The notes under the pieces: generated by a model
The model's database searches: none
Told to the model about the DNA's origin: nothing
Seen by the model: the letters and a program-made list of their open reading frames with translations, nothing else
Position numbers and translations under genes: made by a program
Shown here: positions 28,673 through 51,592 of the stretch, piece by piece
Numbering within the stretch: position 1 is the first letter of the stretch
Layout: every line of letters begins with the position of its first letter
NCBI GenBank assembly: GCA_017452445.1
Contig: JAFTMH010000002.1
Coordinates: 129,697 to 193,696, forward strand
Reading direction: 5' to 3'
DNA length: 64,000 nt
Source of the DNA: Clostridia bacterium
Lineage (GTDB): Bacteria; Bacillota; Clostridia; Christensenellales; UBA1242

Positions 28673-28683
28673 AAGATTGAGAG

Positions 28684-30654: not shown

Positions 30655-30688
30655 AAAGAAGAGTAGAAAAATCTACTCTTTTTTTTTG

Positions 30689-31717
30689 TTATGTTTGAGC
30701 AAGTTTACTCCATGTGTTGATGCCGACAATACCATCAACAGTCAAAGAATTTTGTTGTTGAAACTCTCTTACAGCATTTTGTGTTTTTTGCCCAAAAATT
30801 CCGTCTATTTTTCCAATCTGAATAAAATTACTCTCAAGCAGGTTTTGGAGAAAATAAACATAATTTCCGCGAGAATTTAATCTTAAAATAGGATAAGGTG
30901 GCAATGTAAGCAAGGATTGCCAAGTGTTTCGCCCAACAATGCCATCGACAGTCAAAGAATTTTGCTGTTGAAATTGTTTGACTGCGTCAGTTGTGCGACT
31001 TCCAAAAATTCCGTCAACAGTCAAATTGTAGCCAAGTTGATTTAATATAAATTGCAAAAGAAAAACAAAATTGTTTGAAGATCCTTGTCTTATTGTTGGA
31101 TAGTTTTGTAAATCATCTCGTGGTATAAATGGGACATTTAAATAATCACAAACTCCGGCGCAACATTCTTCTCCCACTTCAGTTTGAAAAAGTGGATTTA
31201 TCATCAAACCTGCCTCTCTGCGATTGGTCATAAACCCTGCTTCGACAAGAGAAGAAGGACAATTTACACTTGACAACACACCTACATCCAAAGTTTTTAC
31301 ACCTCTGCCTGTTTGTGCAGTGCCCTGCAAAAGTTTTTCATATAAGTTTTCTGCCAAAAAACGACTCTCTGTCGCCCGTCTGTTGTTTGGGGAATAAAAC
31401 ACTTCAACCCCTGACGCATTGTTGAAATTTTCGGTAAAAGCATTGTAAGCAAATGTGACAAGAAGTGTAAGGTTTTGTCTGTTGATTCTTCTTACCCTTT
31501 CGTTGATTGAAATGTCAGATAATTCGGGTTTGACATCATAAACAGAAAAACTGTTTCTAAGGCAAGCTTCGATAAATTTGTTTTTTGCTGCCCTGTTGAA
31601 AATGTTTTCATATATTTGTCGGTTGAGTTCGGTTATGTAAGGGGTTCGTTTGCCCGGCGTTGGTGGATTTTGTCCATGTTCGTCATTTGCCCCTATCAAA
31701 AAAACATCGTTTGCCAT
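30689..31717 (-). CDS. N-acetylmuramoyl-L-alanine amidase (Amidase_3-like) with two C-terminal PG_binding_1 repeats
   Basis: Amidase_3-like blocks (GANDEHG, GVEVFYSP, SSLVEAGFMTNRREA). The motif LTVDGI(F/V)G..T..A(V/K).FQQQNSLTVDGIVG..TW occurs twice. ATG at 31717 with AAAGGAG RBS. Confidence 0.75.
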   Translation of the reverse strand: MANDVFLIGANDEHGQNPPTPGKRTPYITELNRQIYENIFNRAAKNKFIEACLRNSFSVYDVKPELSDISINERVRRINRQNLTLLVTFAYNAFTENFNNASGVEVFYSPNNRRATESRFLAENLYEKLLQGTAQTGRGVKTLDVGVLSSVNCPSSLVEAGFMTNRREAGLMINPLFQTEVGEECCAGVCDYLNVPFIPRDDLQNYPTIRQGSSNNFVFLLQFILNQLGYNLTVDGIFGSRTTDAVKQFQQQNSLTVDGIVGRNTWQSLLTLPPYPILRLNSRGNYVYFLQNLLESNFIQIGKIDGIFGQKTQNAVREFQQQNSLTVDGIVGINTWSKLAQT

Positions 31718-32095
31718 TTTTTCTCCTTTAACACAATAACTTTTTATGTTTTGAAAAACAAAAGTGTTAAAATTAAAAAAATCTACAAACAAACAATTTA
31801 AATTTTAATTCGACAAAAACGAACAACAAACATCTTTTTATTTTTAGGTTAACAAAGTTTTTGTGTGCTATAATATCAAAGTCGTTTCCTTCAAAAACAG
31901 TCCCTTGTGACACTTTGAAAGAACAGAAAATTTAATATGGTTTTGTGTTGGGCATCAAGGGCAATGTCAAGAGAGACATTGATTTAGTTTGGGAAAGATA
32001 TTTTTATCTTAATACTTTTTTGTTTTGCTGAAGTTTAAGCAGCAAGTTCCTTTTTTGTCCCAAAACTAAGACTGTATTTTAAAAGGAGAACAAAA

Positions 32096-32479
32096 ATGAG
32101 TGATTCGGATTTGTCTAATATGAGAAGTGTTGTAAAACTTGCACTTATAAAAATTGGGATAAGATGTGATTTGGTCGGATTTAATTATTTATGTTATGCA
32201 ATCGAACTTGTCGTCATCAACCCAAGACTTATACACAAGTTGTGCAAGGGACTTTATTTGGAAGTAGGAAAGAAGTTTAAAACAGACAACGAAATCTGCA
32301 TTGAGCGCAGCATAAGACATGCGATTGAAAACACTTACATAAATAAAGGTTTTATCGAACTTAATCGTATGTTTAATGCTCAACTTTATACAATAAATGA
32401 CAAACCCACGGCTGGAGAACTTATCAGACTTGTTGCAGAGTATTACAATTTGGGTTTGTATAGATTGAACAAGTATTAA
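32096..32479 (+). CDS. Stand-alone Spo0A C-terminal-like DNA-binding protein with no receiver domain
   Basis: Aligns by eye to the B. subtilis Spo0A effector domain: ERSIRHAIENTY versus ERAIRHAIEVAW, and DKPTAGELIRLVAEYY versus AKPTNSEFIAMVADKL. Confidence 0.75.
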   Translation: MSDSDLSNMRSVVKLALIKIGIRCDLVGFNYLCYAIELVVINPRLIHKLCKGLYLEVGKKFKTDNEICIERSIRHAIENTYINKGFIELNRMFNAQLYTINDKPTAGELIRLVAEYYNLGLYRLNKY

Positions 32480-32548
32480 AGTAGAAAAAGTGTTTATTGA
32501 AATTTGCTTTTTGGTGTGGTATAATGTCCTTGCAAAAAGGAGTTTGAA

Positions 32549-32986
32549 ATGAAACCATCAGAAATTTTGTTGAATCCAAAAATATCAAACAGAAACAAGT
32601 TTGGCACATATCTTAAAAGCAGAAGGACAGCGCTTGGTTTGACAGCAAGAGAGATTGCAGAAAAATTGAACCTTTCGTCAGTATATATTTGTGACATTGA
32701 AAAGGGAAACAGACATGCCCCATTGGGTCATTTGGATCAAGTGGCAGAAATTTTGCAAGTTGAAGAAAGTGAAAGAGATTTTTTCTTTGATATTGCAGGT
32801 TGTTCGCACTCAAATTGGCCAGATATAAACGAATATTTAGAGAAAAATCCAAACGCCAGAAAAGCAATCAGATTGGCAAGAGATAAAAATATGTCAGGTG
32901 AAGAATTTTTGAAAATAGTTGAAGATTATGCTCAAACTTTGCAACAAAAACCTTCAACAACACAACCAAAAGAAAAAACAAAATAA
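32549..32986 (+). CDS. XRE-family helix-turn-helix transcriptional regulator
   Basis: HTH_3 pattern LKSRRTALGLTAREIAEKLNLSSVYICDIEKGNR. A TGGTATAAT promoter and AAAGGAG RBS lie upstream. Confidence 0.8.
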   Translation: MKPSEILLNPKISNRNKFGTYLKSRRTALGLTAREIAEKLNLSSVYICDIEKGNRHAPLGHLDQVAEILQVEESERDFFFDIAGCSHSNWPDINEYLEKNPNARKAIRLARDKNMSGEEFLKIVEDYAQTLQQKPSTTQPKEKTK

Positions 32987-33022
32987 AAAAAGAGGAAAAA
33001 ACCTCTTTTCTTTTTTTTTTTA

Positions 33023-33859
33023 TTATAATGGATTTTCACATACATTCATGATTGTGTCAAATGATTTTTTGTCGTGCAAGGTAGGGTCGGAAATGCGTTC
33101 GTGTGATTTGATGTATTTTGTCCATTTGATGTAGCCATAAGTGGTGTTTGTAAGATATCCAAATTTAAGTACAAGCAAAATCCATTGTCCAGCCATAATG
33201 TTGAGAACGATTTCGATAAATGTGACCAAATACCAAGCAATCCATTGCTCCCTGTATCTCAAAAGAATAAACACACCATTTGCAATGCCGATTGCGCTTG
33301 CACATGCATCAAGATAAGCGCCTGCATCTTTGATTGCTTCGTTGTAAGAAAGAATTCCTTCTGCATCAATCATTGAGATAAGATAACCAACAACAACAGT
33401 CCAAACTGCAATTGATGCAATCAAAATCAAATCTTGCCACCAATTGAGTTTTTTAACTTTTGTCAAAGATTCTTCCTTTCTGTCTTTGTGTTTTTGCCAG
33501 AAGAAGAAACTTGCAATGTCGATAGGGATCCAGAAGAACAAAGTTACTGCACAAGTTGCCCAGCGATAAGCACAAACAATGCAAAGGGCAATTTCTGTAA
33601 ATTCAACCAAAAGCGAAACCATAAAGTTCCATTTGCTTTGTTTTGAAATCAACAGTTCGCATGCGACATTTGAAATAATGTCAATTATGTAAAGCATCAT
33701 GACAAGTTTTGGATTGATTGCAAGTTCTTCCGAATCTTCAGGGAAGAGAATTGTAAACAAAATTGTCAAAATAAGAATGCTTGAAAACCAAATTTTTTCG
33801 TATAATGTGAAATAATTCCACAATCTAACCAACCAATTTTTCTTTTTTGTATTTTCCAT
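33023..33859 (-). CDS. pnuC: PnuC-like nicotinamide riboside transporter
   Basis: Seven or eight TM helices with Trp-rich PnuC-type patterns (WNF, FFWQK, LLRYREQWIAWYLV, YGYIKW). ATG at 33859 with AGGAGA RBS. Confidence 0.6.
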   Translation of the reverse strand: MENTKKKNWLVRLWNYFTLYEKIWFSSILILTILFTILFPEDSEELAINPKLVMMLYIIDIISNVACELLISKQSKWNFMVSLLVEFTEIALCIVCAYRWATCAVTLFFWIPIDIASFFFWQKHKDRKEESLTKVKKLNWWQDLILIASIAVWTVVVGYLISMIDAEGILSYNEAIKDAGAYLDACASAIGIANGVFILLRYREQWIAWYLVTFIEIVLNIMAGQWILLVLKFGYLTNTTYGYIKWTKYIKSHERISDPTLHDKKSFDTIMNVCENPL

Positions 33860-33984
33860 GATAAAAATTCTCCTAAAAACAGCATTATTATATATTTTGC
33901 AAACGCCTTTTGTCAAATCGACAACTTACTTTACAAATCAAAAAAAATAATGTAAAATCTAAGGGTAACAAAAGGAAGAAAGAT

Positions 33985-35238
33985 ATGTATTTTGATATTG
34001 AAAAATCGTTGCTTGAAAAAGCAGCAGAAGCAGAAAACGAATGTGTAGAAATGTTTAAAAAGTATGATGAATTGTGTTTGCGCAACTCAGCAAAAATCTT
34101 GAAAGCTTTTCAAGATAAACAGCTTTCAAGCACAGATTTTATTGAAGTGAATGGTTATGGTGCATATGACGCAGGAAGAGATAAACTCGAAGCAATTTAT
34201 GCGCAAATTTTTGGTGCAGAAGATGCTTTGGTTAGACCTCAAATTATGTCAGGAACACATGCTTTGTCATTGACATTTTTTGGGCTTTTGAAACATGGAG
34301 ACACTATGATTTCAATCACAGGAAAACCATACGACTCTTTGCAAACAATCATTGGTATTGAGGGTGACAGCAGAAATTCGCTCATCAAACACGGGATTAA
34401 ATACGAACAAATTGATTTGATTGACTACGCAGATTTTGACATTGAAAAAATTGTTGCAAGACTCAAACAAAGCAAAGTTAGATTGATTGAAATTCAAAGA
34501 TCAAGGGGTTATGCTCACAGACAAAGTTTGTCAATTGAAAAAATCGAAAGAGTTTGCAAAGCAATCAGAGAAGTTGACAAAGATGTCATCATCATGGTTG
34601 ACAACTGCTATGGAGATTTGGTTGAAGATAGAGAGCCAACTCATGTTGGTGCAGATGTTGTTGTCGGCTCTTTGATGAAAAATCTTGGTGGTGGAATCTG
34701 CAAGAGTGGTGGTTATATGGTTGGCACAAAAGAGTGCATCAGCGACATTGCAGAAAGATTTTCAGCACCAGGGACAGGCAAAGAATTGGGCGCAAATTTC
34801 AATGAAAATCTCAATTATTTCAAAGGTCTTTATTTTGCACCACATGCAGTGTGCTCAAGTTTGAAAACTATGACTTTTGCAAGCAGACTTTTGCAAAAAC
34901 TTGGTTTTGATGTTGATCCATTGTTTGACGAACATCGTACAGACATCATTCAAACAATCAATCTTGGAAACGAAGAAAATATGATCAATTTCCATATTGG
35001 GATTCAAAAAGGTTCGCCTGTCGACAGTTATGTAACACCAGTGCCAGGACCAATGGCTGGATATCCACATGACGAAATTATGGCATCAGGCACTTTCACT
35101 CAAGGATCTACAATCGAACTTTCTTGTGATGGTCCAATGGTAGAACCTTACACAGCATATATGCAAGGTGGTTTGACTTATGAATATGGCAAACTTGGAA
35201 TTTTGATTGGATTGAATGAAATTTTGAAAAATAAATAA
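33985..35238 (+). CDS. YnbB / aluminium-resistance family PLP-dependent lyase-like protein
   Basis: Met_gamma_lyase (PF06838)-like sequence: GYGAYDAGRDKLEAIYAQIFGAEDALVRPQIMSGTHAL...IEIQRSRGY. ATG at 33985 with AAAGGAAG RBS. Confidence 0.75.
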   Translation: MYFDIEKSLLEKAAEAENECVEMFKKYDELCLRNSAKILKAFQDKQLSSTDFIEVNGYGAYDAGRDKLEAIYAQIFGAEDALVRPQIMSGTHALSLTFFGLLKHGDTMISITGKPYDSLQTIIGIEGDSRNSLIKHGIKYEQIDLIDYADFDIEKIVARLKQSKVRLIEIQRSRGYAHRQSLSIEKIERVCKAIREVDKDVIIMVDNCYGDLVEDREPTHVGADVVVGSLMKNLGGGICKSGGYMVGTKECISDIAERFSAPGTGKELGANFNENLNYFKGLYFAPHAVCSSLKTMTFASRLLQKLGFDVDPLFDEHRTDIIQTINLGNEENMINFHIGIQKGSPVDSYVTPVPGPMAGYPHDEIMASGTFTQGSTIELSCDGPMVEPYTAYMQGGLTYEYGKLGILIGLNEILKNK

Positions 35239-35403: not shown

Positions 35404-36714
35404 TTATATTTTTGATAAAGCATAATTTGAATAATTTTTGTCATTTGTAACTTCTTTTACAATTTCAATTTGAGGTGGAAATGAAATTTCTTGATCTTCA
35501 GTTTGAAGTTCGATTTCCATAATTGCTTGATCTTTCCAGAAAGGGTAAATGTCAATTTCAAAGTATTGATTTTTATATACCAAGCAATATCTTGTTTTTC
35601 TTATTTGTTTGCAAGAAGTATCGGCGCTCATAAGAAGGTTGAGATATTCGTCTTGCGAGATGCGTTCTTCATATTCAATTCTTTTTACAGGTGAAAGTTG
35701 TTTTTTTGTTGTTTTTGTGTATAGATAACTTCCATTTTGTCCTCTTTGGCGAACTCTCATTTCGACACCATCTTCTGATTTGAGATAAGTTTGAATAATT
35801 TCTACCTTTGTGCAATTTGCATCATTTTCCAAAGATTTGATTGAAGGATATTTGATAAGATATTTTCTTTCAATTTCATAAGGTTCTGGTTCGCCCAAAA
35901 AGAGAGAAATTTCACTTAAAAGTCGTTGCATTTTTGTTTTGAAGTCAGTTGAATTGTCGATTATGCGCAAATGAGGGTGGCCTGTCCAAGAAGAAATGAT
36001 AGAGTTGTCTTTTTCGATAGCCTCTTCGACTGTTTCGGTGCGTGCTTTGTTGTTTGAAAGTGTGTAAAAATCTTCTGCACCTTTTGCAGCAGTAACCAAA
36101 TGAAAAACTGCATCATAATCATCTCTCAAACTGTCTTCTTTGAGATTTAGTTGTTTTAATGTTTTGTAAAATTCGCTTTCAGACTCAAAATAACTTTTTC
36201 CGTCCATTGTGCCCCTGTCACAAACAATCAAAACTTTTTCAGCATCGGCAATCCAATGCGCTGCTTCTTCAAAAAGTTTTTCTTTGTGCTTTTGATGTTT
36301 GAGCACACAAAGTTGAAATTTTGTGGTGTGTTGCATAGTCCATGGAGCAATGCCTGCCAAAATAAGTTCGGTCGCAGTTTCTGGGACAAACAACACAGCC
36401 CAACCTTTTTTTGTAAATTCGTTTTGAATCCATGTCATTGCTGTTGACTTGCCTGCACATGGTCCGCCTGTGATAACAATCTTTTGAATTTGCTTTTTCT
36501 TGTTTTCTGTTTGTTTTGAAACAAGTTGTTGCAAATCTACACCAAAAAGATCTGCAAGTTTGACAAGTTGTGCCAATGCTGGTTTTGCATCGCCGTTTTC
36601 CCACTTTGAAATTGCTTTGTTTGTTATACCAAGTTGCTTTGCAAGTGCTTCTTGCGAAAGACCGACTTCTTTTCTTAAAGAATAAAGATAATTGCCATAT
36701 TCAAAATCTTTCAT
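35404..36714 (-). CDS. Three-domain fusion: XRE HTH, a P-loop NTPase (NadR ribosylnicotinamide-kinase/AAA_28-like) and a C-terminal CYTH domain
   Basis: HTH: LRKEVGLSQEALAKQLGITNKAISKWENG. Walker A: ITGGPCAGKST. CYTH start: YEIERKYLI (ExExK). The C-terminal beta-rich region includes FEIDIY...MEIE. Confidence 0.7.
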   Translation of the reverse strand: MKDFEYGNYLYSLRKEVGLSQEALAKQLGITNKAISKWENGDAKPALAQLVKLADLFGVDLQQLVSKQTENKKKQIQKIVITGGPCAGKSTAMTWIQNEFTKKGWAVLFVPETATELILAGIAPWTMQHTTKFQLCVLKHQKHKEKLFEEAAHWIADAEKVLIVCDRGTMDGKSYFESESEFYKTLKQLNLKEDSLRDDYDAVFHLVTAAKGAEDFYTLSNNKARTETVEEAIEKDNSIISSWTGHPHLRIIDNSTDFKTKMQRLLSEISLFLGEPEPYEIERKYLIKYPSIKSLENDANCTKVEIIQTYLKSEDGVEMRVRQRGQNGSYLYTKTTKKQLSPVKRIEYEERISQDEYLNLLMSADTSCKQIRKTRYCLVYKNQYFEIDIYPFWKDQAIMEIELQTEDQEISFPPQIEIVKEVTNDKNYSNYALSKI

Positions 36715-36829: not shown

Positions 36830-37465
36830 TTATTCTTCGTCTTCAGCTTCTTCAAATTCGCCGAGTTTGTATTCTCTTTTGATTTTGATGTCATATTGTC
36901 TTACATGCACTTTGGCGTTCATAAGTCGATATGCCTTCAACTGTTCTCGTTTTAAATCGGAATGGTCTTCGATAATGATTTCGATCCCGTCCCACAAGAA
37001 GAGCCAGCCCACAACATCGAGCAATGACCACAATGGACTGAGATCAAGCAAGCAGAAAACTGCTTCGAGTGTCAAGATGATAACTCCAAGAAAAACAAAC
37101 AACAAACCTTGAATAAGATTTTTTCTAAGTTGTCTGTCAGCAGCAACGGCTTGTTCGGCATAATGTCTTTTGATTGTTTGACGAATTCTTGTTTTTTCAA
37201 CATTTGTCGTTGGGTTTTCGGTGTAAAAGTCAATACACACATCATCTTCAAATGGGATTGAACCTTCGCAAATGTCGATATATTCGCTTACTTCTGTGTT
37301 GAGAAGTTCGTAAGTTTTGTAGGCAAATGGCGAATAAATATCGTCTGCATTTTGAATGCCTACATTGATGATTGCTCGGCCTTCTTTGTCGTAATATTGC
37401 TCTTCGGCATCTCGCCAAGCAACGCTTTTTTTAAGTTTTTTGATTTGTCTGCGTCTTCTAAGCAT
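36830..37465 (-). CDS. Hypothetical membrane protein (two C-terminal TM helices, acidic tail)
   Basis: ATG at 37465 with AGGAGG RBS, 14 nt after the upstream gene's stop. The track's longer start at 37639 overlaps that gene. Confidence 0.55.
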   Translation of the reverse strand: MLRRRRQIKKLKKSVAWRDAEEQYYDKEGRAIINVGIQNADDIYSPFAYKTYELLNTEVSEYIDICEGSIPFEDDVCIDFYTENPTTNVEKTRIRQTIKRHYAEQAVAADRQLRKNLIQGLLFVFLGVIILTLEAVFCLLDLSPLWSLLDVVGWLFLWDGIEIIIEDHSDLKREQLKAYRLMNAKVHVRQYDIKIKREYKLGEFEEAEDEE

Positions 37466-37478
37466 TTTTGCCTCCTGT

Positions 37479-38891
37479 TTAAATTGATATGCATCCAATC
37501 TTGTTTGCTTTGAGGGTGTTGTTCCACAAGTTGTTTGCAAACTGAATGTGATAAGCAAAATCTTGATCGTTGTAGCCATTGTGAAGTGCAACATACATTG
37601 TGTATTTGCCACTTTTGGTTGGTTTTGTGACTGCAACATTTATTTCTTTTTCGCCGGCATATTTGCCAACGGTTGTTTGATGAGCGACTTTTCCAGTTTC
37701 GTCAACAAACAAAATTGTGATATCTTTTGCACGGTTGAGACTTCCAAAACCAACATTTTTTATGTCGAGTTTGATGTTGATTTTTGAAGTGTCGTTTTGT
37801 ATGGTTGATTGCGTGAGCACAAATCTGTAACCCATATGATTTTTGATGTAGTCATATGCAGTTTGTCCATAATACACTTTGTCATTTCCACAAGTTTGAT
37901 TGTAAGTGGTGCTTTTCCACTTTTCCACAACTTGAGTATCATAATTTTTGTTGAGGTATGACAAGTGAAGAGATTTCATTTCTGTCAAACAGTTTTCAAT
38001 GTTGTTTAAACTGCTTTCAACTTTCAAAACTTCGCCACCATATGGCAAGTGATTTGAAATCTGTTGAGAAATCCAAGCGATTTCTTTTTCTCTGTTTGTG
38101 TAAGTGCCCATATCATTTTCGGTGGACAAGAATGCGTCATTGAAAAGTCCAAGTCTGTAATATGAGGCAAGTGGGTTTATTGTTGCGTTTTCCAAATCGT
38201 TTATGCTTATGTTGAAATAGTCATAAAGCATTTTTGGGGTTCTCACCAAAATGTAAGTGTTGGTTGTGTTGTTGAGAAATGTTTGAATGATTGTGTTTAT
38301 GTTTTCGCTTGTTGCCAAAGCGCTTGTGTGCATTTCTCCCCAAGGTCCGATAAGTCCTGCTTCGATTGCAGTGATTGTTGTTTCAAATTTGTTTGCGATT
38401 TCGCAAATTTGCACAATGTGTGTGGAAATCATCTGCATAGATGGTTCTTTGTCCACATCACTTCCAAAATCTGGTGCATAACAAAATCTCAAAATTGCAT
38501 TTTTGTTTTTTGTTTTGAGTGTTTGCAAAACATCTTCGATGCCATCAACTGCATCTTGTGTCAATGCCAAATCTTCAACAGTGTTGTTTGCTTGAGAAAA
38601 GTCGCTGATGTCAAGGCGAAGATGATAAAGTTGAAATTCATCAGTGATATATTTGTCATTCCACACAACGCCAGTTGTTGAAACTTTGATAGGCAAATGT
38701 TGATAAAACCCTTGATCTGGATTGTTTATTGTTGTGACAACTTCTGCATAGTTTAGATCTTGCACGCCGTTTGTTGGGTCTTTGTGATGTCTGTTGTTTG
38801 AAAGCACAGCCCCAACAACAATCGCAACCACAAAAGCTGCAAAACCTAGAAACTTGTATAAGAAGTTTGAAACAGATTCTTTTGAAGCCAT
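37479..38891 (-). CDS. Membrane-anchored putative glycoside-hydrolase-like protein (DUF4874/DUF4832-type by pattern)
   Basis: An N-terminal TM anchor followed by the IEAGLIGPWGEMH motif I associate with DUF4832 proteins. ATG at 38891 with AAGGAG RBS. Confidence 0.45.
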   Translation of the reverse strand: MASKESVSNFLYKFLGFAAFVVAIVVGAVLSNNRHHKDPTNGVQDLNYAEVVTTINNPDQGFYQHLPIKVSTTGVVWNDKYITDEFQLYHLRLDISDFSQANNTVEDLALTQDAVDGIEDVLQTLKTKNKNAILRFCYAPDFGSDVDKEPSMQMISTHIVQICEIANKFETTITAIEAGLIGPWGEMHTSALATSENINTIIQTFLNNTTNTYILVRTPKMLYDYFNISINDLENATINPLASYYRLGLFNDAFLSTENDMGTYTNREKEIAWISQQISNHLPYGGEVLKVESSLNNIENCLTEMKSLHLSYLNKNYDTQVVEKWKSTTYNQTCGNDKVYYGQTAYDYIKNHMGYRFVLTQSTIQNDTSKINIKLDIKNVGFGSLNRAKDITILFVDETGKVAHQTTVGKYAGEKEINVAVTKPTKSGKYTMYVALHNGYNDQDFAYHIQFANNLWNNTLKANKIGCISI

Positions 38892-39019
38892 AAAATCTCC
38901 TTTTGTTATTATAGCACAAATGAATATCTTTTTGCAAAACACTAAATTAAAAACAACAAATTCAACTTTTTTTGATTTTTGTTGTGTTGTGTGATATAAT
39001 CTTGCCAAAGGAAAAAATT

Positions 39020-39790
39020 ATGGACGCAATAGAAAAGTATTACAACAAATTCAACGAAGACAAACGCTTGCTTTCTCGACATGGCCAGGTCGAATTTGCT
39101 GTGACAATGAAATATATTCAACAATGTGTTGCTGGCAGACAAGGTCTCAAAATTTTGGATGTCGGCGCCGGCACAGGCAGATATTCGATTGCTTTGCACG
39201 AACAAGGTCATCAAGTTTGCGCACTCGAATATGTCAAAAAAAATTTGAGCGTGCTTAAACAAAAGGCACCATACCTTGATGCAAGACAAGGCACTGCGCT
39301 CAATTTGAAAAAATATAAAGATGAAAGTTTTGACATTGTTTTGCTGTTTGGTCCCATGTATCATTTGTTTAGTCAGCAAGACAAAGTAAAAGCGCTGATC
39401 GAAGCAAAGAGAGTTGTCAAAAAAGATGGTTGGATTTTGGTGGCTTATTTGATGAATGAATATGCTGTGATCACTTATGCTTTTAAAGAAGGAAATTTGA
39501 AGAAGTGTTTACAAGAAAAAATGCTTGATGAAAATTTTCATTGTCAAACAACCGAAAAAGATTTGTATAGTTATGTAAGACTTGAAGACATTGATTGTTT
39601 AAATCAACAAGCAGGATTAAGCAGAAAAAAAATAATTGGTGTTGATGGCGCAACTGATTATATACGACCGGTTTTAAACAAATTGCCAGAAGAAGAATTT
39701 GAAGTGTTTGTAAAATACCAAATGTCAATTTGCGAAAGGCAAGATTTGATTGGAGCATCTTCGCACACACTGGACATATTGCAAAAATAA
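39020..39790 (+). CDS. Class I SAM-dependent methyltransferase
   Basis: Motif I ILDVGAGTGRYS and a post-I acidic residue (ALE). FDIVLLFGPMYHL. Confidence 0.8.
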   Translation: MDAIEKYYNKFNEDKRLLSRHGQVEFAVTMKYIQQCVAGRQGLKILDVGAGTGRYSIALHEQGHQVCALEYVKKNLSVLKQKAPYLDARQGTALNLKKYKDESFDIVLLFGPMYHLFSQQDKVKALIEAKRVVKKDGWILVAYLMNEYAVITYAFKEGNLKKCLQEKMLDENFHCQTTEKDLYSYVRLEDIDCLNQQAGLSRKKIIGVDGATDYIRPVLNKLPEEEFEVFVKYQMSICERQDLIGASSHTLDILQK

Positions 39791-41386: not shown

Positions 41387-41475
41387 AAATCCTCCCTATA
41401 GAAGCATTGTAACACATCAAAACCAAAACTTCAATAACTAAAAAACAAAAACACTCCCAAATGAGAGTGTTTTGC

Positions 41476-43134: not shown

Positions 43135-43225
43135 AGCATTCCCCTTTATGAAATGATAATAACACAAAACTTGTCAAACTTCAATAGGCAAAAAAGAAAA
43201 CTGCCCTATATTTAGAGCAGTTTTT

Positions 43226-44785: not shown

Positions 44786-45778
44786 ATGGAACATAAATAT
44801 GTAGATATGTTTTTGCAAAGCATAGAAAAATATGATCGTGCAACAGCAACAACAAATGGTAATCAAGCGACAATAACATTTGCTGAAAGTTGGCAAAATG
44901 TTATGCCTGAGATTGTTGTGCCTGACCTTGACAGACTTGAAGTTGCATTGAGACAATTTTTGCTTGTGACAAAGAGTGTAGATATAAAATCAGTCAAATA
45001 TGATGACAAACACGACGAGAGTTATTTCTTGCATTCGCTTATCAAAAACATAGGAAATGATGATTTTGAAAATGTGGTTGAAATGGTGAGAAGAAACACA
45101 AGATTTTTGTTGGATCAAAGTTTTTGTTGGTTAGACAAAAAACAAGATCTTGGTGTTGTTGATGAAGATATGCACTTGCTTGTTGAAAGAGTGCAAGAAT
45201 ATTATGGTTTTGAAACCCCATTTATGTTGAAGTTTTCTGTCGCAAACAGACACATGACATACGAACTTCCTCTTATAAGATATGGAGTTGAAGAGAAAAA
45301 TGGCAAAAAGATTGCTTATGTTTATGCAGTGCAACGCAAAAAGGTTTACAAAAATGGGTTTGATCAAATTGAAAAATTTGAAAAGCAAATAAGAAAAATC
45401 AATTCGGGTGTAAAAACAAACAGAGATCTCACACCAAGCATGGTGTTTGTGATGACTGCTTTTTGTGGTCTTGCAAAAAGAGAAGGGATTGACGAAATCA
45501 AAATGATTGATTTTATGAACAGAAGATATTTCCACTTCAAAAATGTAAACACCGAAGAAGAACAAATGGCAGTGCAAACAATGACAACCGACAAGTTTTT
45601 AAAACTTGGACTTCGAGCTTGTGATCAGTTTGAAGGCATTGACATTTGGGCATATCCAAATGATGTTGATTGTTATCTCACTTTGAAGATTGGCAAAGAC
45701 TGTTCTTCAAAAAACAAAATGGCAGAATCAGTTTTTAAAGTGTGTGAAGGTCAAAAAGAAAAAAGTTTTGAAAAATAA
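44786..45778 (+). CDS. Hypothetical protein (330 aa)
   Basis: Clean ORF with a TGTTAGAAT promoter, AAAGGA RBS and a terminator at 45780-45806. No recognised family. Confidence 0.55.
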   Translation: MEHKYVDMFLQSIEKYDRATATTNGNQATITFAESWQNVMPEIVVPDLDRLEVALRQFLLVTKSVDIKSVKYDDKHDESYFLHSLIKNIGNDDFENVVEMVRRNTRFLLDQSFCWLDKKQDLGVVDEDMHLLVERVQEYYGFETPFMLKFSVANRHMTYELPLIRYGVEEKNGKKIAYVYAVQRKKVYKNGFDQIEKFEKQIRKINSGVKTNRDLTPSMVFVMTAFCGLAKREGIDEIKMIDFMNRRYFHFKNVNTEEEQMAVQTMTTDKFLKLGLRACDQFEGIDIWAYPNDVDCYLTLKIGKDCSSKNKMAESVFKVCEGQKEKSFEK

Positions 45779-45804
45779 AAAGACCAAGATGTTTGGTCTT
45801 TTTT

Positions 45805-46356
45805 TTATTTTAATGTTGCTGCAAAATATTTTGCAAGAAGTGCACTGCCTGTGCACATTGTGTGTGTTGACAAAAATTCGTCAAGTTGATCAAGTGGAAC
45901 TTTAACAATTTCAATAAGTTCGGTTTCGTCCAAGTTTTGTTTGCCAGAGAGTGAAACTTCAGCAACATACATTTCAATTGTTTCGTCACTCATGCCGGCG
46001 CTTGTGAAACTGCAATCAAGCACCTTTTTGATTGACAACACAGTTGCACCGGTTTCTTCTGAAAGTTCTCGCTTTGCGGCTTGCAGTCGGTCTTCGTTTG
46101 GTTCGACCAGACCGGCAGGGAGTTCGTAAACAAAACAATTTGTGACATATCTAAAATTTTTGATAAAGACAATTTCATTTGTTTCTTTGATATATGGCAA
46201 AATACGCACAGCATCACAAATGTCAGTTTTCTGCAAAGTGTCAGCAGTGCGTCGAGAAGCAAAGTGATAATCTAAATTTTTTTCGCCAACATATTTTGCT
46301 GTGTAAAAATTGAGAAATTTTGTGTCTGTGAGTTTTTCAATTTTTTCAAGTTTCAT
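45805..46356 (-). CDS. NUDIX hydrolase (ADP-ribose pyrophosphatase-like)
   Basis: Nudix box GLVEPNEDRLQAAKRELSEETGA (GX5EX7REUXEEXGU). Confidence 0.85.
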   Translation of the reverse strand: MKLEKIEKLTDTKFLNFYTAKYVGEKNLDYHFASRRTADTLQKTDICDAVRILPYIKETNEIVFIKNFRYVTNCFVYELPAGLVEPNEDRLQAAKRELSEETGATVLSIKKVLDCSFTSAGMSDETIEMYVAEVSLSGKQNLDETELIEIVKVPLDQLDEFLSTHTMCTGSALLAKYFAATLK

Positions 46357-46430
46357 AATGCACCTTCCATAAAAATATTATAACACAAACCAAAATTTTG
46401 CAAAAGAAAAACCTTGCAAAAGAGCAAGGT

Positions 46431-47054
46431 TTATTTTCCGTCTTTTCCTTTTGTTGAAGATGAGACAAGTCTGAGTGGGATTTTGTGGTGACGCTCGCCA
46501 AGCTCTTTAACCCAAGGCACTGACGAATCATGCACAAAAAACTCTTTGTCCAAATATGTGCCAACAACTTGCATTGATCGAGAGTTGTCCAAAAAGAGAG
46601 CGTTGTCAACATATTTGAGTGCTTCAAGGATATGCTTGAATTGATTTTAAAATCTGCCGCGGACAACTTCTTCAGGAATGTCGTGACCACCTTTTGCCAC
46701 CCTTTGTTTGATGCGTTCGAGCGAAAGGTTGACATCTTGCACTCCGATAAAATTGAGTTGAACTAAAAATCCGGCTTCCTTTGCTTCTTTGAGAAACTGC
46801 AAAGTTGTGCTAGTGATGATTGTAGTTTCCCAATTGAAAGAAAGTTTGTTTGCAATGCAATATTTGATTTTGTTGATGGCAATTCTGCCTGATTGTATGA
46901 CTGAGGTTGGGTTCCATTTTTTGCTTTGTTGGGCAAAGATTTCGTCAGGGTTTACTCTTTCGCCAAGGTCAACGCCTACAAACTTTTTTTCATATTTGTA
47001 GAGTGTTGTTTTTCCGGCTCCGTTGATGCCAGCAAAGACTGTGAGAATTGGCAT
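46431..47054 (-). pseudogene. Zeta-toxin / COG4185-type P-loop kinase interrupted by one in-frame TAA (46649-46647)
   Basis: Walker A GINGAGKTT. After ...GGHDIPEEVVRGRF the TAA occurs. The same frame then continues NQFKHILEALKYVDNALFLDNS... to a TAA at 46433-46431, which matches the family's C-terminus. Terminator at 46409-46432. Confidence 0.7.
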
Positions 47055-47057
47055 ATT

Positions 47058-47240
47058 TTACAAATCTCCGTTTTTAATTTTTTTTGCGAAATCGTTTCCG
47101 TTTTTGTAATTTACCAAAAGCATAAACAACTTATGGTCTTTTTTTGGCAACGCTTTCAAACATTCGGCAATTGATGCCATCGAAATTGGTCCAGATTGAT
47201 TGAAATCTCTAACAAAATTTAACAACTCTTCCCTAGTCAT
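47058..47240 (-). CDS. Small protein upstream of the zeta-like gene (possible cognate antitoxin)
   Basis: 60 aa with AAGGGG RBS. Its stop is 3 nt before the zeta-like ATG. The function is inferred from position only. Confidence 0.4.
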   Translation of the reverse strand: MTREELLNFVRDFNQSGPISMASIAECLKALPKKDHKLFMLLVNYKNGNDFAKKIKNGDL

Positions 47241-47369: not shown

Positions 47370-48020
47370 ATGAAAATAAGATTGGCAGAAAAGGAAAATT
47401 TGTTTCCTAAAAAATACTACGAATGTTTTGCTAAAAATGTCCTTAGCAAAGTTTTGCCATACAAAGTTGTTTTGAGAGAACTTAAATGTGGATCGGATTA
47501 TCCAGACCTTGTTTCAAATGATGAAACTGTTGGCATTGAAGTCACTCGTGGCATCGATGAAGACATAGGAAAAAGACAAAAGTTGGTGCAACTTAAATAC
47601 GACAAAGAATATTTTCGAGAAGAAATCATTGAAGAAGCCGAAAGGCTTGGCATTGAAGACGATTTGGTGCACACAAAAGATTTTGTTTATCTTGGCACAA
47701 ACACAATGCCGGCAGAAGAAATCACAATTTTGGCAGAATCAATTTACAAAAAACTTGAAAGGTTGAACGCACCTCATTTCAACTTATATGAAGAAAACGC
47801 CTTGTTTGTTTTTTGCAGTATGCCACAAAAGGATATAGAAAGAGCATTTCATATGATTGATTGGGATTTTTATGGAATCCGTTTTGACAGAGTGTTTTTG
47901 CTTAGCGACAACATTTTGTATGTGTATGATTTTGACAAGATGATGCGCACAGAACTTTCCTCTGATACCATTAAAAAACTTGCAAAGAAAACAAGAAAAG
48001 AAATAAAAAATTTGAAATAA
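47370..48020 (+). CDS. Hypothetical protein, possibly with a PD-(D/E)xK nuclease-like core
   Basis: 216 aa. The YPDLVSNDETVGIEVTRG pattern is weakly reminiscent of D...ExK nucleases. Extended -10 TGATATGAT at 47355-47363 ends 6 nt before the ATG. Confidence 0.45.
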   Translation: MKIRLAEKENLFPKKYYECFAKNVLSKVLPYKVVLRELKCGSDYPDLVSNDETVGIEVTRGIDEDIGKRQKLVQLKYDKEYFREEIIEEAERLGIEDDLVHTKDFVYLGTNTMPAEEITILAESIYKKLERLNAPHFNLYEENALFVFCSMPQKDIERAFHMIDWDFYGIRFDRVFLLSDNILYVYDFDKMMRTELSSDTIKKLAKKTRKEIKNLK

Positions 48021-48050
48021 AAAAACCACTCGCTGAGTGGTTTTTGTTTT

Positions 48051-49274
48051 TTAGAAAATTACGACATAGTCATCTATCTTGTCAAAAAGATTTTCAATTG
48101 CCATACTTTTGTAGAAGTTGTCAACAAGTGAGTATTTTGTTTCACCAACCAAATCAACAAATTGCATGATTTCGCCATTTTGGTTGCAGAAGTTTGCAAT
48201 ATAATTTGAAGAAACAACAATTTCAGCATCAGAGCCTTTGTTAAACTCAATTGCTCTGCCTGTCCCACTTTCGAGGGAGTTGTTTTTTACAATGATGAGG
48301 CCAGTGAAATAGTTGTCTTGGTCGACTTCGCCATAGATGCCAATAGCATTGTCAGTGATGTTGATAAACTTGTTGTTGTCAATAATTGCATTTTCAAAAG
48401 AGTCAATTACGATACCTTGATAATGTCCAGAAATCGTGTTGTTTTCAAAGACAACATCTTTGATGTCGCCTGTTTGACTGCAAGAAAGATAAATTGCTGC
48501 CTTGTGTTGTTGAGCAGTTGAAGTTTCAAAAGTGCAATTTTTGATTTCAAAAGCTGAAACTTGCGAATCTTGATAAGTGCTGTCCACATAAATCAAACCG
48601 TTTGATCCGGCAAAGTTGAGGTTTTGAAATGTTATGTTTGTAAGTGAAATGTGAGAAGCGTGTTTTCCCCTTTGGTCAGCTTGCATATAATCCATGCCCC
48701 TTACAGCATCATAAATAAGTCCTCCATTGAAGGCCGATTGATCATCGGCAAAAGTTTCACCACTTCTTACAAAAAAAGTGTTGTTGATTGAAGTGCCTTC
48801 AACTCCAACAAAAGTTACATTTTCGATGTTGCGAGTGTAGTGATATCTAAAAGAGTCATCTTTGACAAGTTCGTTGAGTGCAAATGCATAAGTTTTGTCG
48901 TAAGTTGTGTCGCTTGTCCAAGCATAGATTCTGGTTGTTGAATCTGATTTTGAAGGTCTCAACTCCAAAAGGTTGTCAAAGTTGTAAGCACCAAAAACAA
49001 TTGTCTTTCCGTTGATGTTTGTGTCCAAAACGGATTGCACATTTTCTGGTGTGACAACAATTGAATTTTCCAAAACTTTTGCAGGACCATATTTGTCACA
49101 GTGTTGACATTTTTGGCTGTAATAAGCAGTGTCGTCCTTTATTGAATATTGAATTGTTTCTGTGTAGTCATGAATGTGACCTGGTCTGCCCAAGAGTGGA
49201 AAAATTAAAGCTGCAAAACCGACGAGCACCCCAAGAAGAACAATCGCAACGATAAGTTTTTTGCCTGTTGCCAT
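48051..49274 (-). CDS. Membrane-anchored right-handed beta-helix (PbH1 repeat) protein
   Basis: N-terminal TM anchor. Repeated N-x-I/F-x-N turns (VFENNTISGHYQGIVIDSFENAIIDNNKFINITDNAIGIYG...VKNNSLESGTGRAIEF). Confidence 0.6.
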   Translation of the reverse strand: MATGKKLIVAIVLLGVLVGFAALIFPLLGRPGHIHDYTETIQYSIKDDTAYYSQKCQHCDKYGPAKVLENSIVVTPENVQSVLDTNINGKTIVFGAYNFDNLLELRPSKSDSTTRIYAWTSDTTYDKTYAFALNELVKDDSFRYHYTRNIENVTFVGVEGTSINNTFFVRSGETFADDQSAFNGGLIYDAVRGMDYMQADQRGKHASHISLTNITFQNLNFAGSNGLIYVDSTYQDSQVSAFEIKNCTFETSTAQQHKAAIYLSCSQTGDIKDVVFENNTISGHYQGIVIDSFENAIIDNNKFINITDNAIGIYGEVDQDNYFTGLIIVKNNSLESGTGRAIEFNKGSDAEIVVSSNYIANFCNQNGEIMQFVDLVGETKYSLVDNFYKSMAIENLFDKIDDYVVIF

Positions 49275-49385
49275 AAAACATCTCCTTTTCTTATTTTAAT
49301 AATATCAAAATTTTCTATGCAAAGTAAACCATTTTTGCAAACAAGAAAAAAATAAAACACATTGTTTATAAATGTGTTTTTAACT

Positions 49386-49820
49386 TTACAACTTTTTAAC
49401 ATAGCAAACAATGCGATTTGCTTCGACAAAGCCTGCTGACTTATGAAAGGATTGACTTGCCGTGTTTGAAAGTTCGCAATCGCTTGCAAATTCGCTGCAA
49501 CCATTTTCTTTTGCCCAAGATTGGCAGTTTGCAAGAAGTTGTTTTGAAATGCCTTTGCCTCGAAAATTTTGTTCGACAAAAATGCCTTCAAGATAACCCA
49601 CAGGGCTTGTTTGTGTGCCTTCAACATAATCAAATCGAAGTTGACATTGTGCAAACCCAACAGTTTGGTCATTGCTTTTAGCAAGAAAAATGCAAGCATC
49701 ATTTTTACAGAGAAGTTGTTGAAATTCTTCTACAAGTTCGTCAATATCGTGCTCTGGCCACAATTTCAGTGCTAAAGATGCAATTTCTTCAACATCTTTG
49801 CTTGTTGCTTTTACGATCAT
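49386..49820 (-). CDS. GNAT acetyltransferase closely resembling the AAC(6')-I aminoglycoside acetyltransferases
   Basis: LWPEH...VGFAQCQLRFDYVEGTQTSPVGYLEGIFVEQNFRGKGISKQLL...GCSEFASDCELSNTASQSFHKSAGFVE parallels the AAC(6')-Iy sequence as I remember it. Confidence 0.7.
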   Translation of the reverse strand: MIVKATSKDVEEIASLALKLWPEHDIDELVEEFQQLLCKNDACIFLAKSNDQTVGFAQCQLRFDYVEGTQTSPVGYLEGIFVEQNFRGKGISKQLLANCQSWAKENGCSEFASDCELSNTASQSFHKSAGFVEANRIVCYVKKL

Positions 49821-49835
49821 AAAACCTCCAAACTG

Positions 49836-50534
49836 TTATTGATTGATTTTGTTTTTTGCATAAGGATAACCGGCTTTGTCCATAAGGTCGATCTCGTGTA
49901 TAATATCAAATTCAACAAACTTTTCTTCTAGATTGATTTGTGCATCGTCGCAAGTTATCAATAAGTATGGACCAGGGTTTTTAAGCCCACTTGAACCAAG
50001 GCAATAATAATGTTTTTTGTTGTTGGAAAAATGAGTTGTTTTGTGTTCGTGCCCAAAGATGTAATAGTCGGCATCAACATTTTCAAATTGTTGTTTGCGA
50101 ATATCAAAAGATGGATTTTCTGGACTGTCTACAACATTGATGTCATTGTTGAATTCTTCCCAAGCATAGTGAGAAAAGTAAAGCTGTTTTCCACCTGCAT
50201 TTAAGCGAAAGTCAATAGGCCAAGATTTTAGATAGGATTTGTTTTCATCTGAAACATTTTGACAAATCCAATCAAGTTGTTTAAGTTTGCTTGGGGAAAA
50301 CTCTGCCTTATCCACATCAGGGATATGGTCGCAAACATAAAAATCGTTGTTGCCTAAAAGTTTTATGCAATCCCATTGTTTCAAAGTGTTTATACATTCA
50401 TCAGGTCTGCTGCAACCAAAAACAATGTCGCCAAGAAAAATTCTTAAATCAGCAGTTTTGAAATCTTCGGTGTTTTCCAATGCTTGCAAACAACTTAAAC
50501 TGCCGTGAACATCAGTAAAAACAAATATTTTCAT
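49836..50534 (-). CDS. Calcineurin-like metallophosphoesterase
   Basis: Motifs FTDVHG, GDIV, GNND and GHEH. Confidence 0.8.
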   Translation of the reverse strand: MKIFVFTDVHGSLSCLQALENTEDFKTADLRIFLGDIVFGCSRPDECINTLKQWDCIKLLGNNDFYVCDHIPDVDKAEFSPSKLKQLDWICQNVSDENKSYLKSWPIDFRLNAGGKQLYFSHYAWEEFNNDINVVDSPENPSFDIRKQQFENVDADYYIFGHEHKTTHFSNNKKHYYCLGSSGLKNPGPYLLITCDDAQINLEEKFVEFDIIHEIDLMDKAGYPYAKNKINQ

Positions 50535-50633
50535 TTTGTATCCTCTTAAAATTATTATAAAGCACGACCAGCAAGCAAGTCAAATTGTAGGAAAACAAAA
50601 AATCACCTTTACCCAAAGATAAAGGTGATTGTC

Positions 50634-50721
50634 TGGCGCAGAGTTAGGGATTCGAACCCCAGGTAGCTTTCACTACAACGGTTTTCAAGACCGCCGCTTT
50701 CGACCGCTCAGCCAACTCTGC
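50634..50721 (-). tRNA. tRNA-Ser (anticodon UGA), CCA encoded
   Basis: Acceptor GCAGAGU/ACUCUGC. Anticodon loop CU-UGA-AA. Long variable arm. T-loop GGUUCGAAUCC. A terminator hairpin at 50601-50630 follows. Confidence 0.9.
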
Positions 50722-50857
50722 ATAAGGTCGCTACTTCAATAGCAAAGAAAGTATAATATATTTTGACCGAATTTGCAAGTGTTTTTCAAAAATTTTTGAA
50801 AATTTGGAGAAAAAATAAACAGTCGCAACGGCCAAACTGTCGACAAACAGGGAAAAG

Positions 50858-50874
50858 TTGTCCACTTATCCACA
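50858..50874 (+). promoter_or_regulatory. Isolated tandem DnaA boxes outside oriC
   Basis: TTGTCCAC at 50858-50865 is directly followed by a perfect TTATCCACA at 50866-50874. Confidence 0.55.
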
Positions 50875-50899
50875 AAAAAAAGGTTAAAGAAAGTTTTCT

Positions 50900-51460
50900 C
50901 TAACCTTTGTAGTTTTTGCAGAACTCTTGATATTTTGCCCACACCTCATCTGCAAGATCTTGAGGGGTGCGATCTTTGCTGTCAATAACCAAGTCATAAT
51001 GCGAAAGATCATACAAATCAATGTTGTAGATTTGTTTGTATCTGTCCACTTCCAAAATTTGACGATTTGCCAAAGTTTCTTCTGCTGCTTCTCTTGTTGA
51101 ATATTTTTCTTTGCCTGTGCGATCAGAGTTGACAAGTCTTTCGATGCTTACTTCTCTGTCAAGGTCAACAAACACTTTGAATGACTTTGGGACAAAGTGC
51201 CAAGCAAGACGACTGTCAAAGATGTATTTTTGTCCTTCATATTGTTTGCCAAGGTCGACTGTTTGTTGGTCGATAACATAATCAAATGATGGGTCGCTCA
51301 TGCAAAATTTGTTGAACTCTTCTGTTGTCATGCCTCTTTTGTGTGCTTCTGCTTTGAAGATGTCGCCTACTCCAATGCGTGTGAAGCCGTGTTGATCGAC
51401 AAGAAGTTTTGCGATTGTAGATTTTCCACTGCAAGGTTTTCCTGTGATTGTGATGATCAT
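50900..51460 (-). CDS. Cytidylate-kinase-like P-loop nucleotide kinase
   Basis: MIITITGKPCSGKSTIAKLL Walker A, 186 aa, AGGAGG RBS. A strong terminator overlaps the stop at 50881-50905. Confidence 0.65.
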   Translation of the reverse strand: MIITITGKPCSGKSTIAKLLVDQHGFTRIGVGDIFKAEAHKRGMTTEEFNKFCMSDPSFDYVIDQQTVDLGKQYEGQKYIFDSRLAWHFVPKSFKVFVDLDREVSIERLVNSDRTGKEKYSTREAAEETLANRQILEVDRYKQIYNIDLYDLSHYDLVIDSKDRTPQDLADEVWAKYQEFCKNYKG

Positions 51461-51592
51461 TGTTTCCTCCTATGGTTTATTGTATGTTAGCACAATAAAC
51501 CTCATTTTCAAAACAAATGTTTCAAAAAGTTTGAAGTTTTTTTGCAAATGTGATATTCTATATTCGGATAGAAAAAAAGGAGAAAAATTATT

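Follow-up and report, generated by a model that had tools for sequence, protein, structure and literature searches.

A yidC-jag interval that is fixed in the gut genus Candidatus Caccovivens and variable across its family

Gene content of the yidC-jag interval

The stretch analysed here, 64 kb of the contig JAFTMH010000002.1 (hereafter the window, whose coordinates are used throughout), comes from a metagenome assembly of Candidatus Caccovivens, an uncultured genus of gut Clostridia to which it was assigned by comparison of its Jag protein with species-representative genomes. This study is concerned with the 20.9-kb interval between yidC and jag, two genes that form a two-gene operon in Bacillus subtilis and that are separated in the window by 22 features, namely 21 protein genes and one tRNA-Ser(UGA). 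The original prediction, made from the sequence alone, described this block as an old insertion or rearrangement, no longer active, that splits a normally adjacent pair. A comparison with relatives, all of them metagenome assemblies as well, leads to a different picture. The block adds a further case to a type of region already described, the chromosomal variable region, being fixed within its genus and variable across its family, and it is probably a long-resident and vertically inherited part of the chromosome rather than a mobile element. The age and the inactivity proposed originally are thereby retained, and the discrete insertion between yidC and jag is not.

On its left side, the interval is bordered by four plus-strand genes: rpmH (28538-28672, peptide read directly), rnpA (28684-29016, Pfam Ribonuclease_P), yidD (28985-29257, Pfam YidD) and yidC (29245-30654, 469 aa, Pfam 60KD_IMP). 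This operon lies 3' of the dnaA-dnaN pair and on the same strand. Between the convergent yidC and amidase genes, a hairpin with a T-run (30657-30687, GAAGAGTAGAAAAATCTACTCTTTTTTTTT) presumably terminates the yidC operon. On the right side, jag (khpB; 51593-52417, plus strand) encodes a protein with Jag_N, KH and R3H domains and is followed, all on the plus strand, by a gene for a 415-aa protein without family match, then by mnmE, mnmG, rsmG, parA and parB. A new count returned the boundaries given originally (end of yidC at 30654, start of jag at 51593), together with the same 22 features, 16 of them on the minus strand, which carries 76% of the annotated block bases.

The block opens with a minus-strand gene for an N-acetylmuramoyl-L-alanine amidase (30689-31792; Pfam Amidase_3 and two PG_binding_1 domains), its left anchor. 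This gene is followed by a 127-aa stand-alone Spo0A_C protein and an XRE regulator on the plus strand (32096-32986), by the divergent pair of PnuC (minus) and a YnbB-like enzyme of the Met_gamma_lyase family (plus; 33023-35238) and, on the minus strand, by a fusion of HTH_3, AAA_28 P-loop and CYTH domains (35404-36714) and by a 211-aa protein without label next to a DUF4874+DUF4832 protein (36830-38940). The starts of these last two genes were adjusted to their orthologues (211 aa, and 470-487 aa in the same-genus contigs L016-L018). A plus-strand S-adenosylmethionine-dependent methyltransferase (38972-39790, Pfam Methyltransf_11/25) precedes two minus-strand tandem paralogs of 524 and 563 aa (39812-43167), designated transglutaminase-like on the basis of their predicted fold and conserved residues, and the minus-strand magnesium transporter MgtE (43226-44590, Pfam). 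Further to the right lie a plus-strand gene for a 330-aa protein without label and a minus-strand NUDIX hydrolase (44786-46356, Pfam), a minus-strand 60-aa open reading frame (ORF) with a zeta-toxin-like P-loop kinase (46431-47240, Pfam Zeta_toxin), a plus-strand gene for a 216-aa protein with no family match in any library scanned (47370-48020), and a minus-strand run of three genes (48051-50534; Pfam, NCBIfam) encoding a protein with a weak match to the beta-helix family GH28 (hereafter the weak-GH28 protein), the predicted aminoglycoside acetyltransferase AAC(6') and a metallophosphoesterase. The right end holds the minus-strand tRNA-Ser(UGA) (50634-50721; ARAGORN, Rfam) with its terminator hairpin (50601-50630, the whole spanning 50601-50721), an abutting pair of DnaA boxes (50858-50874, plus strand, from a box scan) and the right anchor, a minus-strand gene for a cytidylate-kinase-like P-loop kinase (50900-51460; Pfam Cytidylate_kin2, AAA_18) that is divergent from jag.

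Pfam returned the labels proposed originally for the amidase, Spo0A_C, XRE, PnuC, YnbB, DUF4832, methyltransferase, MgtE, NUDIX, Zeta_toxin and phosphoesterase genes. The description of the block as a mosaic holds as well, its content consisting of unrelated single-gene units. Terminators are predicted at nearly every gene boundary, and about 16 transcription units are predicted in total. Two additional ORFs (46346-46735 and 49205-49702) were discarded as spurious overlaps.

Conservation in the genus and variation across the family

Relatives, designated here by L numbers, were found by protein-identity look-ups; a scan of metagenome contigs with the 524-aa paralog returned none. L016 belongs to the same genus, its DnaA (91% identical to that of the window) being encoded on the same 37,025-bp contig as its block genes. 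L003 is a second Caccovivens species, at 89% nucleotide identity, and the part retrieved extends from the right half of the block onward. L017 and L018 are same-species contigs that cover the middle of the block. L004 is the closest relative outside the genus, and L022 and L023 probably belong to the species of L008, to which L022 is linked by DnaA cluster. Of the contigs retrieved, none but the window reaches from one end of the block to the other.

Within the genus, the block is conserved as a whole. In L016, the complete series of block genes, amidase first and metallophosphoesterase last, comes after yidC, in the order and relative orientation of the window. The part of L003 that was retrieved aligns collinearly with window positions 41587-62409, and in its divergence from the window the block (0.86-0.94) stands close to the core flank (0.88-0.96), with a dip at 48.1 kb. 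L017 and L018 carry the same genes, mostly 98-100% identical, with the exception of the 524-aa paralog (84%) and of the methyltransferase (91%), a pattern suggestive of local allelic replacement. The patchy distribution in close relatives that would be expected of a tRNA-linked genomic island was not seen: L016 and L003 (right half) match the window, and the content differs between genera only. Likewise, no variation in gene content was seen among strains in L017 and L018, only allelic divergence. These contigs also bear on the idea that the block is an assembly or binning chimera. Although the window and its relatives are all metagenome assemblies, the junctions recur in independent ones, from the kinase to jag in L002, from the 563-aa paralog to parB in L003, from yidC to the metallophosphoesterase in L016 and through the middle of the block in L017/L018, and a chimera is scarcely credible.

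Across the family, the premise that yidC and jag are neighbors fails, a finding that the original prediction had named as contrary to an insertion. In all nine members in which the yidC junction is readable (window, L016, L005, L006, L012, L014, L022/L023, L026 and L027), the gene after yidC is the convergent amidase and never jag. On the other side, 13 relatives were retrieved together with jag, and in 12 of them the gene just before jag encodes, on the minus strand, a P-loop kinase some 190 aa long (known in L005 from a tblastn match only). In L007-L015 and in the window, this kinase resembles cytidylate kinases in some genera and guanylate kinases in others (hhalign gives the two types only a 50% probability of being related), which looks like a non-orthologous gene replacement at a fixed place. 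In L027, a short minus-strand gene is directly followed by mnmE, and jag was not recognized.

The space between these two anchors is of very unequal size. The gap from yidC to jag measures 2.5 kb in L005, 3.9 kb in L006, 4.4 kb in L012 and 8.7 kb in L014, compared with 20.9 kb in the window. More than 10 kb without yidC lie upstream of jag in L008, and the 4.8 kb that follow yidC in L022 do not overlap with that stretch. In L004, L009, L010, L011 and L015, no yidC is found within 10 kb upstream of jag, so that either the gap exceeds 10 kb or the two genes are unlinked; within these 10 kb, L004 has only the kinase in common with the window. The core genes on the yidC and jag sides are nevertheless 50-98% identical and syntenic in L003-L015, L022, L026 and L027.

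Some residents are shared by several genera, where they lie in the interval or close to it: Spo0A_C, PnuC-YnbB, the 211-aa protein, a DUF4832 protein and tRNA-Ser(UGA). Spo0A_C also lies in the interval in L010, L016, L022, L026 and L027, and the PnuC-YnbB pair is kept in L014, L016 and L022 and found downstream of parB in L009. The other cargo depends on the genus and includes genes for ThyX-like proteins, sulfatase, aldehyde dehydrogenase, APH, LytTR, FolD, AcnX and restriction-modification methylases. The jag|mnmE and mnmE|mnmG junctions contain lineage-specific inserts too.

The magnesium transporter gene shows how a native gene may come to reside in such a place. Many 454-aa orthologues of MgtE were found at 70-79% identity, against a range of 72-77% for DnaA, and in L024 and L025 the mgtE orthologues sit elsewhere, near secA/recD2 and near uvrC/glmS. 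To judge from these identities, MgtE tracks the family as a vertically inherited native gene. As its identity is DnaA-like and its neighborhood is another one in two lineages, mgtE, at least, entered the interval by a rearrangement within the genome and not by import.

The following course of events may be proposed for the interval as long-resident chromosome. The adjacency of yidC and jag would have been lost early in the family that contains Candidatus Caccovivens. Since then, the yidC operon would close at its hairpin, with the convergent amidase next, and jag would have an upstream region of its own, with the divergent kinase before it. With a hairpin terminator behind yidC and a separate upstream region in front of jag, a change in this interval would break no operon; the space between the amidase and kinase anchors may for that reason tolerate change, its content varying from genus to genus. 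Three sources of change can be envisaged: the piecemeal gain and loss of genes; the relocation of native genes within the chromosome, as seen with mgtE (the PnuC-YnbB pair, for its part, has another location in L009); and the arrival of a recombinase-borne island beside tRNA-Ser(UGA), in one relative or more. In the genus of the window, a 21-kb set of about 16 self-contained transcription units, each with its own predicted promoter and terminator, would then have been fixed. This set would have been inherited in order through speciation, a few of its genes evolving fast or being swapped allele by allele. The head-on state would be that of the anchors and residents throughout the family, held until the base skew had equilibrated.

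Such a region resembles the chromosomal hotspots, or regions of genome plasticity, by its conserved core flanks, by an interval content that differs from genus to genus and by the presence of a recombinase island in one relative. It differs from them in that its content is fixed in the genus, that mgtE is a relocated native gene and that two family-conserved anchors lie inside. The comparison with the spoIIIJ(yidC)-jag region of B. subtilis, and with the usual order rnpA-yidC-jag-mnmE-mnmG near oriC, shows that the genes to one side of the origin agree in arrangement and orientation. In the present family, however, the gap ranges from 2.5 kb to over 20 kb, rpmH is preceded by dnaA-dnaN in the same orientation, and inserts are found at jag|mnmE and mnmE|mnmG.

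Mobile-element signatures, composition and orientation

The tRNA-Ser(UGA) at the right end had been put forward as a classical island target. It does adjoin the block, in head-on orientation and with its 3' end directed toward it; an attachment (att) repeat, an integrase and a foreign composition, on the other hand, are lacking. In agreement with the original prediction, no recombinase, transposase or phage family was found with Pfam on all block proteins, nor with NCBIfam, PHROGs and PADLOC on subsets of them; for the block proteins without label, PADLOC and PHROGs gave generic HTH, NUDIX and ATPase matches only. A direct repeat of the 3' half of the tRNA had been suggested as a sign of insertion. 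By blastn-short, the tRNA-Ser, its 3' half and its flanks match nothing else in the window but the other tRNA-Ser, at 60780-60805, and no repeat of the 3' half exists. The block has no flanking direct repeats, the sole real repeat being the paralog pair, and a megablast search of the block gave no match to plasmids and, among phages, matches to the tRNA only.

The site itself is not closed to mobile DNA. In L010, a 508-aa large serine recombinase (in the region 5534-7134 of that contig) runs up to the 3' end of tRNA-Ser(UGA) and has two C5 DNA methylase genes as neighbors, and since this recombinase adjoins the same tRNA-Ser, the site can receive mobile DNA. A tblastn search of the window with this recombinase gave nothing. 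The same contig of L010 contains, at 20050-20101, a 52-bp copy (51/52) of the tRNA end and terminator, inverted, 13 kb away and beyond jag-parB, which may be what is left of an att site or may result from an inversion. In the relatives, tRNA-Ser is not always located within the yidC-jag interval.

Composition, for which a comparison of GC, codon usage and k-mers with the flanks had been proposed originally, gives no foreign signal either. The tetranucleotides of the block are native, with a distance of 14.3e-3 for block windows versus 16.1e-3 for the rest of the window, and the shifts in the other measures are small: GC is 0.364 versus 0.343, GC at third codon positions (GC3) is 0.337 versus 0.290, and the codon fit is slightly different (p ~0.01-0.02 for the three differences). 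The original prediction had considered that the same block, with native composition, in relatives would speak against an insertion, and this is what was found through L016, L003 and the tetranucleotides.

The block, or its right half by tRNA-Ser(UGA), could still be a decayed island that was integrated at the tRNA and later lost its integrase and att site. Like a tRNA-linked genomic island, it adjoins a tRNA whose 3' end faces it, and its mosaic includes a toxin-like kinase and an aminoglycoside acetyltransferase; the zeta-like pair and AAC(6') belong to kinds of genes often carried on mobile elements, and both are among the tRNA-proximal genes. The recombinase and two C5 methylases of L010 at the same tRNA-Ser, the slightly raised GC3 and the genes from the methyltransferase to the phosphoesterase, which have no homologues near jag in other genera, also favor this explanation. 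It is nevertheless unlikely. Unlike such an island, the block is without integrase or flanking repeats and native in its tetranucleotides, no transposase or relative of the L010 recombinase was found in the window, the 3' half and flank of the tRNA are unrepeated, the vertically inherited mgtE lies amid the right half, the best plasmid match to AAC(6') is only 53% identical, and the block is fixed in every congener retrieved.

The orientation of the block genes was examined with respect to the origin. The cumulative GC skew has its minimum at about 25-26 kb of the window, and the dnaA-dnaN spacer contains four DnaA boxes (<=1 mismatch) at 26847-27006, beside an AT-rich stretch, in an oriC-like arrangement. 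Because both the skew minimum and this box cluster lie to the left, the plus strand is taken as the leading strand across the block and its minus-strand genes as head-on, as originally claimed. The significance of this bias depends on the unit that is counted. Sixteen minus-strand features out of 22 give p = 0.052 against a 50:50 expectation and p = 3e-4 against an assumed co-orientation of 75%, and 11 minus-strand units among the roughly 16 predicted transcription units give p = 0.21. Counted in this last way, the head-on excess is not distinguishable from a random orientation of what would be weakly expressed accessory genes.

The base skew indicates that this orientation is old. On the plus strand, the pooled GC3 skew is +0.31 for 14 minus-strand block genes and +0.02 for six plus-strand block genes, to be compared with +0.05 for 16 co-oriented core genes of the right replichore and -0.28 for four head-on plus-strand genes of the left replichore. 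The head-on genes of both replichores thus have an equally strong skew and the co-oriented genes almost none, and the block genes conform to this, each by its own strand. Had the minus-strand genes recently been flipped from a co-oriented state, a skew of about -0.05 would be predicted for them instead of the observed +0.31, and the head-on orientation is therefore considered to be old. In the relatives, the GC3 skew did not fit a simple two-term model.

The layout of the origin was compared as well. From 24232 to 30654, recF (minus) is divergent from dnaA, dnaN, rpmH, rnpA, yidD and yidC (all plus), and this recF(-)|dnaA-dnaN...yidC(+) layout is identical in every family member sampled (L005, L012, L022, L026 and L027). 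The orientation of dnaA-dnaN is inverted relative to the order given for many Firmicutes (PMC5124646). It could be argued on these grounds that the minus-strand genes once formed the co-oriented left-replichore flank of jag and owe their head-on state to an inversion of the origin module (dnaA-dnaN-rpmH-rnpA-yidD-yidC) or to its transfer to their left. The position of dnaA-dnaN upstream of rpmH-yidC on the same strand with a divergent recF, unlike that in many Firmicutes (PMC5124646), the 76% of annotated block bases on the minus strand and the negative skew upstream of jag in five relatives (L004, L008, L009, L011 and L015), with its minimum at or near jag, would fit such a move. However, the recF(-)|dnaA-dnaN-...-yidC(+)-amidase(-) order is found in every sampled member, L022/L023 included, so that any move would predate the family; the GC3 skew has equilibrated as that of head-on genes of the right replichore, and no cluster of DnaA boxes lies beside jag in these five relatives. 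This scenario is thus regarded as quite improbable. A second configuration, with the origin beside jag in some relatives, had been considered in view of this negative skew and was dropped: L022/L023 show dnaA...yidC-amidase-Spo0A_C-PnuC-YnbB, and the five relatives with negative skew have no DnaA boxes near jag.

The abutting DnaA boxes reported originally at 50858-50874, TTGTCCAC|TTATCCACA, are present directly after the terminator of the kinase gene, and the second is indeed perfect. They are a real sequence and represent candidate boxes. The 64-kb window contains five perfect boxes where 0.59 would be expected; three (50308, 50866 and 52311) are grouped around jag, within 2 kb. Near the pair, five boxes with <=1 mismatch are spread over 2.6 kb, mostly inside genes, and form no dense intergenic cluster. 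The perfect member of the pair is altered to TTATCAACA in the sister species L003, and the other genera have no box there. Five further box-like 9-mers (<=1 mismatch; one perfect, at 42303) lie within 770 bp inside the 563-aa paralog (42069-42841), where coding constraint may explain them, since at least one overlaps codons of a conserved protein motif.

In B. subtilis, a cluster of DnaA boxes lies between thdF and jag, the DBC[thdF-jag] (PMC3245932). The window likewise has consensus boxes outside oriC, near jag and close to the origin. They differ from this cluster in that the window has two abutting boxes with sparse others, of which the perfect one is mutated in L003, and none occurs at this place in other genera. 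One may imagine the gap as a landing pad near the origin that is under selection and that arose as a by-product when dnaA-dnaN were relocated in the whole family. Its head-on polarity (that of an essential tRNA included) and the scattered perfect boxes around jag would influence the progression of forks or the availability of DnaA close to oriC, after the fashion of the DBC[thdF-jag]. This appears very unlikely.

Several points weigh against the reading of the interval as long-resident, vertically inherited chromosome. The data comprise 64 kb of the window genome and stretches of about 20 kb of its relatives, and a neighbor-joining tree of Jag+MnmE+MnmG is star-like, on which gain and loss cannot be polarized. 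The promoters and terminators of the block are consensus predictions only, and the relocation of native genes was tested for mgtE alone. Part of the right half could be an ameliorated island, because the genes from the methyltransferase to the phosphoesterase (38.97-50.5 kb) are without counterparts near jag elsewhere and because of the 3' end of tRNA-Ser, the zeta-like pair and AAC(6'); GC3 is also slightly raised in the block. Finally, the GC skew of L004, L008, L009, L011 and L015 amounts to -0.11 to -0.19 in the 10 kb upstream of jag, with a cumulative minimum at or near jag.

Read as resident chromosome, the interval is a reminder that neither the textbook adjacency of yidC and jag nor a strict co-orientation of genes near oriC is universal. 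In this uncultured family of gut Clostridia, an origin-proximal core cluster is broken at several junctions and contains lineage-specific genes, and a region with the look of an island, when one genome is considered alone, proves native and fixed once it is compared.

Individual genes of the block and neighboring regions

The acetyltransferase gene deserves attention in resistome surveys. The AAC(6')-like GNAT of the original prediction keeps its identity, and the gene corresponds to the 144-aa ORF 49386-49820 (minus) instead of the overlapping 165-aa ORF. Its protein scores 195.5 bits over its full length against the NCBIfam model NF043067 (AAC_6p_group_E), above the cut-off of 140, and is accordingly a predicted AAC(6') group E equivalog. 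Among plasmid-borne aac(6') genes, the closest shows 53% identity. In this gut commensal, the equivalog seems to reside on the chromosome and not to be mobile.

The zeta-type pair had been described as decayed. The gene is indeed interrupted, not by a frameshift but by one in-frame TAA (46647-46649) in what is otherwise a single ORF (46431-47054; Zeta_toxin 30.6 bits, cut-off 22.3). The 60-aa ORF upstream of it (47058-47240) has no family match. In L003 and L016, the zeta-like orthologues are intact, with 207 aa and 210 aa.

Two little-studied families are represented in the block. In the fusion protein, Pfam identified HTH_3 and AAA_28 and missed CYTH, and residues 280-434 match the PDB entries 2fbl and 3typ at E = 4e-10. 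The entry 2fbl is the CYTH-family triphosphatase of Nitrosomonas, and the CYTH label of the C-terminal domain stands because of this match, in accordance with the HTH/P-loop/CYTH fusion proposed at first.

The transglutaminase-like paralogs form the second family, a rare one with 44 homologues in 5.8 billion proteins. The two copies are 41% identical and constitute a 71% nucleotide repeat at a spacing of 1748 nt. They have no match in Pfam or NCBIfam, and a PDB sequence search with the 524-aa paralog and with the 407-aa weak-GH28 protein (48051-49274) gave none. C308, H349 and D370 are nonetheless invariant in 36 sequences of the family. The predicted structure (mean predicted local distance difference test score, pLDDT, 90.7) has as best Foldseek matches 9crn (E = 2e-5) and the cysteine protease 3isr (E = 0.02), with low template-modelling scores of 0.14-0.35; TglA of Streptococcus pyogenes and the cysteine protease rank best, and menin and arylamine N-acetyltransferases come lower, at E >0.1. 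We take this set of matches to be transglutaminase-like. The invariant Cys-His-Asp and a predicted fold similar to that of transglutaminases and cysteine proteases, even if with low TM-scores, are consistent with the name given to the two paralogs originally.

These paralogs and the weak-GH28 protein share a rapid divergence, with 61-84% identity between sister species for the three proteins taken together, compared with 94-100% for their neighbors. The weak-GH28 protein itself is 61-72% identical in sister species, and the 524-aa paralog of L016 is 74% identical to that of the window. Such a divergence suggests diversifying selection or an exchange of alleles. The stand-alone Spo0A_C protein (32096-32479), which has no receiver domain, is kept in the interval across several genera and matches two PHROG families of unassigned function.

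Some observations concern the flanking genes. YidC varies from 422 to 503 aa across the family, its 60KD_IMP match is split in two stretches and its C-terminal half diverges fast (72% identity in L016); the 469 aa of the window are long for a YidC of the Firmicutes. The 415-aa protein encoded between jag and mnmE (52490-53737), which matches no family, is confined to the genus of the window and L004, and in other genera the jag-mnmE junction contains different inserts or none. On the other side of the origin, recF is followed not by gyrB but by a gene for a CvpA-like protein of 964 aa and then by a cluster of mraW and penicillin-binding protein genes. The region 17571-19502 was considered as gyrB and rejected, since orthology with L022 identifies it as a penicillin-binding protein (transpeptidase/PASTA). 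At the left end of the window, a single minus-strand ORF of at least 3049 aa (1-9148) runs off the stretch, its N-terminus being a likely signal or membrane anchor, and it is the sole clear tetranucleotide outlier of the window (r = 0.83 versus ~0.97 elsewhere).

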